Positions 25,297 through 34,317 of a DNA stretch of 64,000 nucleotides are shown here, in pieces. Below the pieces are notes generated by a model. It was not told the origin of the DNA, ran no database searches, and saw only the letters and a program-made list of their open reading frames with translations. Every line of letters starts with the position of its first letter. Positions within the stretch are counted from its first letter, which is position 1. Made by a program: the position numbers and the translations under genes. Origin of the DNA: Holothuria leucospilota (Eukaryota); assembly GCA_029531755.1 (NCBI GenBank), contig CM055976.1, positions 6,720,493 to 6,784,492 of the forward strand, written 5' to 3'.

Positions 25297-25412
25297 CTTA
25301 TATATATATATATATATATATATATATATATATATATATATATATATATATATATATATATATATATATATATATATATATATATATATATATATATATA
25401 TATATATATATA
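25297..25412. repeat. (TA)58 microsatellite
   Basis: Read directly. It abuts the 5' end of the truncated PLE2 copy. Confidence 0.95.
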
Positions 25413-25916
25413 TTCAGAATAGAAAAGAACATATCTAAGCACTTGGTCCGTGCCTCCCAACCTCAAGCAGTAGTGCCTGACACCCCAGGAACTTTTCCTT
25501 GCAACCGTGGGAGATGCAATACTTGCCCGGTGGTCAGTTATGACAAAAACCTTTCCATTGTAGGTTCCAACAACAACCGGTTTAACGTTCATCAGCATTT
25601 TACCTGTACTTCAGCCAATGTTGTTTACGTTCTCGTTTGTAAACACTGTAATATACTGTACGTGGGAGAAACAAAACGTCGTCTTGCTGACGGAGTCACC
25701 GAGCACCTGAGGTCAATCAAAAAGAACCTCCCAGGGTTCCCGGTAGCCACCCACTTCAATCCCCCGTCCACATGCTCGATCCGTGACTTGATGGTTTCGG
25801 TGGCCATCTCGTGTCGAGGTTCCGATCATGACCGCCTAGCTGCCGAAAACCGCCTAATCATGAAACTTGGAACCCTGTCCCCACATGGTCTGAACGTTAG
25901 ACTTGAACTGTTATAA
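25413..25916 (+). pseudogene. truncated PLE2 ORF fragment (CCHH-type Cys linker plus GIY-YIG endonuclease domain)
   Basis: It carries the CNRGRCNTCP finger and the GIY-YIG motifs (Y-V-L-V-C...ILYVGET...R..EH). Its in-frame start is read through the (TA)n repeat. Confidence 0.7.
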
Positions 25917-26056
25917 CGCAGCAACTCCTGCATTTTTTTGACTTGTGGTAACCACTTAACACTGTCTGTTTTCCTAGCCGAGGTTTACCGTGCCCAATTT
26001 TATTGTGTATTTTTTAAATTGTACGTTTGGCCGTGTCAACGATCAGTTGCATTTTT

Positions 26057-26093
26057 GCCACCTGATGAAGGGTTTAAACCCGAAACGTCGTGG
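26057..26093 (+). ncRNA. minimal type-I hammerhead ribozyme (PLE-type) in the 3' region of the truncated PLE2 copy
   Basis: Helix I 5' strand ccac, then CUGAUGA (26062-68). Helix II is the GGGUUUAAACCC hairpin. GAAAC (26082-86) is followed by the palindromic dimerizing helix III ACGU and GUC|, with cleavage after 26089. Helix I 3' strand gugg pairs with ccac. Confidence 0.7.
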
Positions 26094-26174
26094 AATTTTT
26101 CACAAACTTTTAGCACTATTTACTACTTTATTTTTACCTACCTACTTCATAAGTGCTACGCAGTACTTTGACCC

Positions 26175-26320
26175 TATATATATATATATATATATATGTA
26201 TATATATATATATATATACATATATATATATATATATATATATATATATATATATATATATATATATATATATATATATATATATATATATATATATATA
26301 TATATATATATATATATATA
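26175..26320. repeat. (TA)n microsatellite of about 70 units with a few interruptions
   Basis: Read directly. It separates the PLE2 fragment from the PLE1 inverted pair. Confidence 0.95.
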
Positions 26321-26383
26321 GAAAGTATAAGCAAAAATAATAGCAAGAAACACAACTTTTGCTGCTCCACTATAATAAGTATA

Positions 26384-32294: not shown

Positions 32295-32439
32295 CGCAGC
32301 AATTCCTGCATTATTTTGACTTGTGGTAACCACTTAACACTGTCTGTTTTCCTAGCCGAGGTTTACCGTGCCCAATTTTATTGTGTATTTTTTTTTTTAA
32401 ATTGTACGTTTGGCCGTGTCAACGATCAGTTGCATTTTT

Positions 32440-32476
32440 GCCACCTGATGAAGGGTTTAAACCCGAAACGTCGTGG
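32440..32476 (+). ncRNA. minimal type-I hammerhead ribozyme in the PLE2 3' UTR
   Basis: ccac CUGAUGA (32445-51) ag GGGUUUAAACCC GAAAC (32465-69) GUC| gugg, identical to the 26057-26093 copy. Confidence 0.7.
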
Positions 32477-32522
32477 AATTTTTCACAAACTTTTAGCACT
32501 ATTTACTACTTCATTTTTACCT

Positions 32523-32612
32523 ATATATATATATATATATATATATATATATATATATATATATATATATATATATATATATATATATATATATATATAT
32601 ATATATATATAT
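32523..32612. repeat. (TA)45 microsatellite at the 3' end of PLE2; further (TA)n blocks lie at 30338-30362, 32750-32772, 32965-33036 and 33187-33290
   Basis: Read directly. Confidence 0.95.
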
Positions 32613-32760
32613 ATAACGAGAATAAGAAAGTTCAACATACCCAAACAATGTACTCCCAACAAAAGGATCCAAATAGGATGCCAGGGTGTTTCTCTCATGA
32701 TAATATAGAAAGTATAAGCAATAAGTATTGCTATTATTTTTGCTTATACTTTCTATATAT
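32613..32760 (-). repeat. inverted copy of the ~120-bp terminal segment of PLE1 (matching 30225-30345)
   Basis: The reverse complement of 32613-32760 matches ...ctttctatattatcatgagagaaacaccctggcatcctatttggatccttttgttgggagtacattgtttgggtatgttgaactttcttattctcgtt. Confidence 0.7.
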
Positions 32761-34317
32761 ATATATATATATATGTATAGGCCTTCTCACTGGTGTTCGG
32801 TTTCAACGAAAGGGTCACCTACCGCACCCTCATTTTGCCCCAATAGTGATTTGCATAACGCCGATTATGAAAAGAATATTGTCACGATTCTAAATGTCGG
32901 GGAGAGAAATTCATACCTCCGTTAGTAGGGGTGAGGATGGAAAAATCAAGCAGGATAGCTATTTATTATATATATATATATATATATATATATATATATA
33001 ATATATATATATATATATATATATATATATATATTGGGGTGATGGAATCCACGTGTGCTCACACACGTGTGTTCACACGTGTGGAACACAGGTGTGTTCG
33101 AAAATTTCGTATCACCATATATTGTACATATTTGCTATATATTTGCAATAGATCGAATACGTGCTTCAAAATGTCAACCGGCCTGTTATATATATATATA
33201 TATATATACATATATATATACATACAAACATATATACATATATATATATATATATATATGTATATATATTATATATCCATATGTATATATATTAAGTATG
33301 TATGAATATGTACTTAATTATGTACTTTCACGGTCCTTAAAGACAGATCACCTTCGGACCATGATGTAGGTCAATATGTAGTGCATGACCTTTTGACGGA
33401 GTAATCCCCTTCCTACTATCATCTCGGAGATAGGAGCCTTCTCCGGAGGTAAGGCGCAACTGGCCCACGTATTAGTGAAGCCAAACATGGAAGGGAAAAC
33501 TTTCACTCCACATTTTTAACAAGTGCAATCGAAATCATATTCCTAAATTTTAATTGGTAACCATCTAGTATGAAAACTGGGTGTTTTGAAATGCCTAGAA
33601 TCTACTCTGGGGGACACTGACTCTGAAGTGGGCCTTTTAAAGGCCCGCACATCCCACTACGACCGAGAGACGGGATGACTGACTTCAGATCTGTTTTCAG
33701 CATGGTCGATAACCTCTAGGACGCAATTCTTATCAAGCGTGAGTAACTTCCATTTCATCCCCTTCTTCCCCTGGGGTTGTCAACGGGTGAGAGGGAATAA
33801 CCTTCCTTCAGCTTCAGAATAACGATAATAACACGCCTGGGTTTTCGGACGACTGCTCATTTCAAAAATATAATTTTTAGTCCTTTAGATTTTGAAATAT
33901 TTGGTTTCCATTAGAGGGCGCCCTGTATAGGCCATAGACCTGTGCAAGTAAGCTGTGCCATAAATATGACCCACCTTTATGTAATAAAATATGTTGCAGT
34001 CCTTCATATTTTTTATCGTAGATACTGTATGTTCTTTTTGGTGAGCTTGCGGATCAACAGAGGAGTGAGGGCGCTTTAAGTATATGAAGGAAAAATATGA
34101 TAGTATTATGTATTTGGCCCAGACAATTGGAAAAGGTGACCTTTAATTTTTCTGCTGTCTTTCAGTGTACCTTTTTAAGGGAAATATACCTTCAAGAGAA
34201 CGATGTAAAATAGGGGTGGAGCCCCTTCCCCTGGGGTATGACCTACGACCTTTCTGAATTAACGTATGAATTTTTGATAAAATTCCACGTTTCCATTTCA
34301 TATGAAAACGTCATTAG

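Follow-up and report, generated by a model that had tools for sequence, protein, structure and literature searches.

A cluster of two Penelope-like element families bounded by (TA)n tracts in Holothuria leucospilota

Anatomy of the cluster

A 64-kb window of the Holothuria leucospilota genome (64,000 nucleotides; assembly GCA_029531755.1, contig CM055976.1, positions 6,720,493 to 6,784,492 of the forward strand) contains a cluster of Penelope-like elements (PLEs) that belong to two families, PLE1 and PLE2. All coordinates are positions in this window, which is repeat-rich and has a GC content of about 35-46%. The limits of the elements were set by repeat finding, BLAST and a listing of open reading frames (ORFs), and tandem arrays were located with Tandem Repeats Finder (TRF). 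The interval 25299-32779 holds at least four PLE insertion units with a (TA)n tract at every outer end, and all eight outer element termini, the PLE1 tail included, lie at the edge of such a tract. A sequence-only reading of this DNA had placed every junction at (TA)n, which TRF and BLAST bear out with small corrections of the coordinates. Seven (TA)n arrays lie within 25299-33292, and the sole other array of at least five units in the window is at 56041-56064. Tracts of this size make up 554 of the 64,000 bases, or about 0.9% of the window.

The cluster begins with (TA)57.5 at 25299-25413, the apparent left outer part of the target microsatellite, which borders unique DNA on the left and, on the right, the point at which the PLE2 short copy is 5'-truncated. 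The PLE2 short copy (25414-26174, plus strand) bears a tail and retains the C-terminal 167 codons, including the GIY-YIG domain, together with the 3' untranslated region (UTR) and a hammerhead core at 26062-26086. A (TA)73 tract with a few G/C interruptions (26175-26320) separates it from the left arm of PLE1 (about 26320-28485, minus strand). This arm is tail-less, with (TA)n joined directly after ..CTA at its 3' end, and has a hammerhead core at 26393-26417 and an open ORF of 671 amino acids (aa). The right arm of PLE1 (28486-30331, plus strand) has a hammerhead core at 30143-30167 and a tail at about 30242-30331. The two arms are joined head-to-head at 28485/28486 with a 4-bp microhomology. 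They are 99.9% identical over the 1755 bp that they share (28486-30239 in the right arm); the roughly two differences include a 1-bp indel, by which the right-arm ORF is frameshifted relative to the left arm.

The right half of the cluster starts with (TA)16.5 at 30332-30364. The PLE1 tail adjoins this tract on the left, and on the right follows the PLE2 long copy (30365-32521, plus strand), which is 5'-truncated at this junction. The long copy is tail-less, has 642 open codons and a hammerhead core at 32445-32469, and ends in ..CCTA. The short copy matches 31792-32523 of the long copy with 97.4% identity (BLAST). A (TA)47 tract (32522-32615) then leads to a miniature PLE1 unit of 138 bp (32616-32753, minus strand), which has (TA)n on both sides, its right flank being (TA)13 at 32754-32779. 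More (TA)n had been reported downstream to 33290, and two further arrays are found there, at 32967-33034 and 33187-33292, set off from the cluster by 187 bp and from each other by 152 bp. The segments in between (32780-32966 and 33035-33186), each bounded by (TA)n on both sides, have no match within the window or the fetched loci, and the second contains CACGTGTG-type repeats. These segments may be fragments of other (TA)n-seeking elements.

The stretch 30250-30362 had been taken for a (TA)n boundary. This is correct for the (TA)16 at 30332-30364, but 30245-30331, between the apparent PLE1 end and that tract, is neither (TA)n nor PLE2. It is repeated in inverted orientation at 32616-32702, where 87 of 87 positions match. 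The sequence from 30242 to 30331 can be aligned to the ~90 nt that immediately precede (TA)n in three relatives from other assemblies (loci L001, L002 and L003), with the shared motif ATCC..TTGGATCC..GTTGG..CTT. In partial tandem copies (L012, L018), the tail motif ATCC..GGATCC is found downstream of the hammerhead and ahead of the ORF start of the next unit. Because of this homology to the ends of relatives and to tandem leaders, 30245-30331 is assigned as the PLE1 tail. In PLEs, a tail is an extension that an insertion unit carries at one of its ends only (PMC8557442 section 6; PMC3846280 section 6). Two other explanations were set aside on the alignment to the terminal ~90 nt of the relatives, namely flanking or transduced DNA and an inverted duplication of a segment that would flank the PLE2 long copy on both sides.

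PLE2 has a shorter tail of 34 nt, seen as the last ~34 nt of the short copy (26141-26174), which the long copy lacks. The short copy and two relatives of PLE2 (L088 and L089) end in ..GTACTTTGACC(C), and the long copy stops at ..CCTA.

Beyond the PLE2 long copy, a 120-bp terminal fragment of PLE1 had been reported in inverted orientation at 32613-32760. An inverted PLE1 end is present, but its limits are 32616-32753 and the 138 bp seem to be more than a fragment. Read on the minus strand, they consist of a 27-bp tail-less arm, a TACTTA filler, a 15-bp arm, ATAT and an 87-nt tail. This layout suggests a complete but extremely 5'-truncated inverted PLE1 unit.

The 671-aa ORF of PLE1 had been called intact, and this does not hold. 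Full-length relatives of PLE1 encode 820-960 aa, and residue 1 of PLE1 aligns about 270 residues into them; therefore, the ATG of the ORF is fortuitous and both arms are 5'-truncated. PLE2 had been described as near-full at 30300-32520. A PLE2 copy is indeed present, but it begins at 30365 and lacks ~790 bp of the 5' end, including ~86 codons, in comparison with L088. The latter is a marine-metagenome contig with a protein 90% identical to PLE2 at the amino acid level, and it reaches 788 nt further 5' than the long copy. The reading frame of the long copy is open up to a stop at 32294 and has no start codon. Since all copies in the window are 5'-truncated, they were dead on arrival.

Proteins, hammerhead motifs and clade

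The PLE1 ORF (26462-28477, minus strand) and the PLE2 ORF (30366-32291) can be aligned end to end with 30% aa identity over 638 aa. Pfam detects RVT_1 in PLE2 (3e-8) as well as a GIY-YIG domain at the C-terminus of both PLE1 (3.7e-5) and PLE2 (1.2e-3). Both families are endonuclease-bearing (EN+) PLEs, in which one ORF codes for a reverse transcriptase (RT) and, after it, a C-terminal GIY-YIG nuclease. A DKG motif lies N-terminal to the core RT (IQDKGSRF in PLE1, PADKGGAT in PLE2). A C-x3/4-C-x2-C linker precedes the GIY-YIG domain (CNNKCDLC in PLE1, CNRGRCNTC in PLE2). The CCHH motif, whose two Cys lie between GIY and YIG and are followed by His residues, is also present in PLE1 and PLE2 and reads VVYVLVCKRCNILYVG..EH in the latter. 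In an alignment of PLE1 with 20 homologues, D56, K57 and G58 of the first motif, C524, C528 and C531 of the linker, and C569, C572 and H591 of the CCHH motif are invariant.

PLE2 is 94-99% identical in amino acid sequence to annotated Holothuria leucospilota proteins. The closest relatives of PLE1 are only 56-68% identical, and the sole named ones are coral proteins (Montipora, Stylophora). As far as can be told, PLE1 and PLE2 are holothurian families that have not been individually described so far.

Clades were compared by the motif definitions of PMC8557442. The linker points to the Neptune or the Nematis clade; it is common to both and insufficient for a placement in Neptune. Members of these clades share with PLE1 and PLE2 a single ORF with RT and C-terminal GIY-YIG, the DKG motif, the linker, the CCHH motif and a minimal hammerhead in the pseudo-long terminal repeat (pLTR) or 3' UTR. 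Further likenesses are that copies are often 5'-truncated, with an inverted copy next to them and a tail on one side only, and that insertion is biased towards (TA)n (PMC8557442). At ~90 nt, the tail in the PLE1 lineage differs from the usual figure of 30-40 nt; that of PLE2 measures 34 nt.

The sea-cucumber host, the short size of the elements and the association with (TA)n made the Hydra clade a candidate. Hydra elements are ~3 kb in size, occur in aquatic invertebrates including a sea cucumber, have canonical hammerheads and insert nearly universally into (TA)n. However, they have DKT, no CCHH and a CxCX5C linker, whereas PLE1 and PLE2 have DKG, CCHH and CX3CxxC (PMC8557442 section 11), and these motifs rule the clade out. 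Naiad elements likewise have a (TA)n preference, pLTRs, inverted copies and tails, but they are distinguished by an N-terminal EN, a CxC motif, an IFD, DKA and a lack of canonical hammerheads, none of which applies here. The Naiad/Chlamys clade is ruled out by the C-terminal position of the EN and the presence of hammerheads.

Both families carry predicted minimal hammerhead ribozymes in the 3' UTR. A pattern search finds the core CTGANGA-N12-13-GAAAC on the sense strand in four of four element 3' UTRs, and the window has five matches in total against 0.29 expected. Helices I and II covary over 19 distinct relatives, with 82.5% of cells pairing compared to 59.6% after shuffling (0 of 500 shuffles equal the observed value) and 27-48% in slid controls. 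The helix III position is a palindromic ACGU, and the GAAAC-GU(A/C) arrangement is that of the loop-less, minimal dimeric type (per PMC4209133), which is known from PLE pLTRs (PMC4209133). The fifth core match, CTGATGAACATTATATGAAAC at 14083-14103 on the minus strand, has neither helix II complementarity nor a PLE context and is probably due to chance.

(TA)n flanks and inverted pairs at other loci

The junctions in the window are nested in one microsatellite and are not independent, so the significance of the (TA)n association rests on independent loci elsewhere. The flanks were examined in relatives from other assemblies. The long-read set consists of seven loci from ENA long-read assemblies (L001-L003 and L084-L087), scored for (TA)>=4 within 230 nt. 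Among these PLE1 relatives (~60% aa identity), 15 of 16 hammerhead-bearing 3' ends have such a tract; the sole exception is at a locus edge and is part of no recognised copy. The two closest relatives of PLE2 (90% aa identity) share its 3' terminus, which is followed by (TA)n in L089 and by TATATA in L088. Two loci (L087 and L090) are nests of PLE copies and short hammerhead-bearing fragments within (TA)n arrays. Since independent long-read loci have (TA)n ends as well as the same head-to-head pairs, the (TA)n association is a property of the lineage and not a local coincidence. The sequence-only reading had offered two explanations, that these elements prefer (TA)n as a target or that a single microsatellite was entered repeatedly, and both hold as one phenomenon.

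In L090 (ENA ERZ25067862 ctg41187), (TA)n is interleaved with at least eight short fragments at 1099-3351 and 8751-10675, on the flanks of a PLE inverted pair. These fragments have hammerhead cores of three sequence families and no ORF. They all nest in (TA)n and are either retrozyme-like non-autonomous derivatives of PLEs or copies with an extreme 5' truncation.

The window as well as L001, L084, L085, L086 and L090 contain head-to-head pairs bordered by (TA)n at either end, and such pairs are the usual form in this lineage. Within each pair, the arms are identical through the hammerhead up to a conserved ..CTA. The (TA)n tract then starts 72-101 nt after the hammerhead start in the tail-less arm and 163-200 nt after it in the tailed arm. 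All six full-size pairs are heterotypic, with one tailed and one tail-less arm, and the miniature unit has the same composition. The unseen arm of L090 was predicted to be tail-less before it was retrieved, and it proved to be so (90 nt vs 200 nt). If the two ends were chosen independently, six heterotypic pairs would have a probability of at most 0.5^6, or about 0.016. The longer arm is not always the tail-less one, since L084 has the opposite arrangement to the window.

The pattern in the window could also be a local coincidence, in which one or two PLEs inserted beside a microsatellite and recombination, inversion or duplication scattered their fragments, with no targeting involved. All window junctions do lie in one 8-kb (TA)n-rich patch. 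In addition, the PLE1 terminus and tail occur twice, as inverted copies that flank the PLE2 long copy and are 100% identical, which could result from a segmental duplication followed by deletion of a palindrome. However, the pattern is shared by two families that are only 30% identical, and independent loci in other assemblies repeat both the (TA)n flanks and the architecture. The miniature unit also has the full layout of one tailed and one tail-less arm, and an independent, extremely truncated insertion needs no extra rearrangement to explain it. A coincidence is therefore very improbable.

Inverted duplications and long (TA)n tracts are typical of mis-assembly, and part of the nest may thus not exist. 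Tandem and inverted PLE structures are known to cause trouble in assembly (PMC8557442 section 6; PMC3846280 section 7), and the near-identity of the arms is as given by the assembly. Against this, the same architecture, including the asymmetry of the tails, is found at six loci in at least three independent long-read assemblies. The PLE1 arms also differ in length and by an indel, and the PLE2 copies are 2.6% diverged. The chance that the structure is an artefact appears to be minimal.

Insertion into (TA)n and neighbouring repeats

The best explanation of the cluster, with a probability of roughly 0.85, is that canonical PLEs of two distantly related families (30% aa identity) inserted at least four times into an ancestral (TA)n tract, with nicking and priming on both strands. 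The four units would be the PLE2 3' fragment, the PLE1 head-to-head pair, the longer 5'-truncated PLE2 copy and the 138-bp miniature PLE1 pair. Each insertion would have divided the tract and provided new (TA)n to its left and right for the one that followed. Recombination within the microsatellite is not needed to explain the structure.

The proposed course of an insertion is modelled on the full-length protein of the Poseidon element PAc from Anolis carolinensis, which cleaves and extends both target strands and cuts preferentially at AT-rich sites (Frangieh et al. 2024, PMC11167929). By analogy, the ribonucleoprotein (RNP) of PLE1 or PLE2 would nick AT-rich DNA on both strands, and a self-complementary (TA)n tract would show it the same site on each. 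Each 3'-OH would then prime reverse transcription of element RNA, giving two 5'-truncated copies that meet head-to-head with their 3' ends outward into (TA)n. PAc RNA has two adjacent internal RT start sites, whose spacing corresponds to the genomic tail (PMC11167929). In PLE1 and PLE2, a start site A right after the conserved ..CTA would produce a tail-less end, and a start site B, 34 nt (PLE2) or ~90 nt (PLE1) beyond it, would produce a tailed end. Cleavage and extension of both strands, the AT-rich preference and the two start sites of PAc fit the anatomy observed here. However, PAc belongs to another clade, has no CX2-5CxxC linker and has no reported strict targeting of microsatellites. 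Recognition of (TA)n may depend on the zinc-finger-like CX3CxxC linker upstream of GIY-YIG, which is a published candidate for this role. We infer the order of events and the priming on both strands from the anatomy and from this comparison.

The (TA)n tracts could instead be largely made by the elements, if the telomerase-related RT reiterates a UA template or if TA seeds expand by slippage. The tail-less start site is TA-like (..CTATAT in PLE1, ..CTA in relatives), and the 3' end of L088 has TATATA only. Some tail-less ends carry other short repeats, as if a ..TCTA site had been reiterated: L001 has (TCTA)5 followed by (TA)n at ~5560-5590, and L045 has ~100 bp of (TCTA)n/(TCCA)n with no (TA)n, at an end on the minus strand downstream of the hammerhead at 1435. 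However, (TA)n also adjoins the 5'-truncation points of both PLE2 copies, which lie at different internal positions, and this argues that the tract is the target and not a 3' appendage. It also adjoins tailed ends whose last bases are not TA-like (..CTCGT, ..CTCAC, ..TGCT), and published analyses take (TA)n as the target (PMC8557442). Whatever their origin, the tracts have probably changed in length since insertion, and this does not conflict with targeting. It is therefore improbable that the elements made most of the (TA)n.

Several points weigh against repeated insertion into (TA)n by the proposed route. A metagenome scan yielded 80 loci, most of them short-read contigs that either break off or have a 3' UTR running into the following tandem unit, which makes them a weak sample for flanks. 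Downstream of the hammerhead, six of its short-read ends have (TA)n, eight run into the next tandem unit, and 14 have neither (TA)>=4 within 230 nt nor a downstream ORF; some of the 14 have TATATA only, some (TCTA)n and some unrelated sequence. Either the (TA)n bias is strong but not absolute, or short-read assemblies collapse the repeats. Target-site duplications and empty sites are unreadable in a microsatellite, and for this reason we only infer that the tract existed before the insertions. The suggested mechanism is borrowed from a lizard element of the Poseidon clade, whose RT start site did not differ between strands. Finally, Rfam scans at the gathering threshold and at E<=10 return no hammerhead family and only spurious miRNA-like matches on (TA)n, because the minimal PLE hammerhead has no helix III hairpin.

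The presence of one tailed and one tail-less arm in every pair is an only mildly new point. For PAc in vitro, the start site is the same for both strands, whereas every genomic pair here has one end of each kind. It is conceivable, but rather doubtful, that each inverted unit uses both RT start sites once, one per target strand, and that the two priming events are coupled rather than independent, for example through an asymmetric dimeric RNP on the self-complementary (TA)n target. As a weaker addition to this idea, the (TCTA)n runs at some tail-less ends might reflect telomerase-like reiterative copying at a ..TCTA start site. If the one-tail rule holds genome-wide, it would be the genomic trace of a PLE integration step not yet reconstituted.

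The sequence-only reading had mentioned reports of a microsatellite preference in PLEs, and this literature exists: Naiad and Hydra elements insert preferentially into (TA)n (Craig et al. 2021, PMC8557442). For Neptune elements, a like bias, ascribed to the CX2-5CxxC linker, is credited in PMC8557442 to Arkhipova (2006). A tail on one end together with an inverted 5'-truncated copy has been described for PLEs (PMC8557442), as has a tail on one of the inverted pLTRs (Arkhipova et al. 2013, PMC3846280 section 6). Thus (TA)n targeting, nesting, inverted copies, one-sided tails and hammerheads are already published for PLEs, and the locus is a new, well-resolved holothurian example. For annotation, it is a clean worked example of how PLE insertions can be delimited. 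Without such delimitation, the 87-90-nt segment that seems unique and the 138-bp hairpin-like fragment would be recorded as unknown repeats, and the 671-aa ORF would be taken for a gene. The added value is small and lies in two points. The architecture is conserved between a holothurian and ~60%-identical relatives whose sole named matches are coral, and the tail on exactly one arm per pair can be compared with the in-vitro model of two start sites.

The cluster is bracketed by two inverted blocks ~9.7 kb apart, at 24589-24796 (plus strand) and 34299-34414 (minus strand). Each consists of four to five repeats of 17-23 bp (ACCGATAATGTAAAAA), 74-83% identical. The blocks look like the subterminal repeats of a DNA transposon or foldback element, and in that case the microsatellite may lie inside another mobile element. 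Just to the right of the cluster, a 65-bp tandem repeat occurs at 35112-35604 (7.6 copies) and 36464-36900 (6.7 copies), with a related ~200-bp repeat at 38865-39244; these repeats are satellite-like.

Other tandem arrays lie further from the cluster. A 143-bp array at 3475-3617 has 8.9 copies of the 16-bp unit CCCCCCCCCCCCCACC with a 100% match. The 22-bp palindromic unit TTATTACGTACGTACGTAATAA forms three arrays of 5.7-7.6 copies each (44865-45009, 47845-47967 and 52099-52264) at a spacing of 3-4 kb; these arrays may belong to a further repeat family, as its ends or as repeats within it. A 21-bp repeat (ATGTACTAAAAATACACGTTC-like) forms arrays at 60972-61388 (plus strand) and 61856-61937, where the reverse-complement unit ~500 bp downstream makes an inverted pair of blocks.

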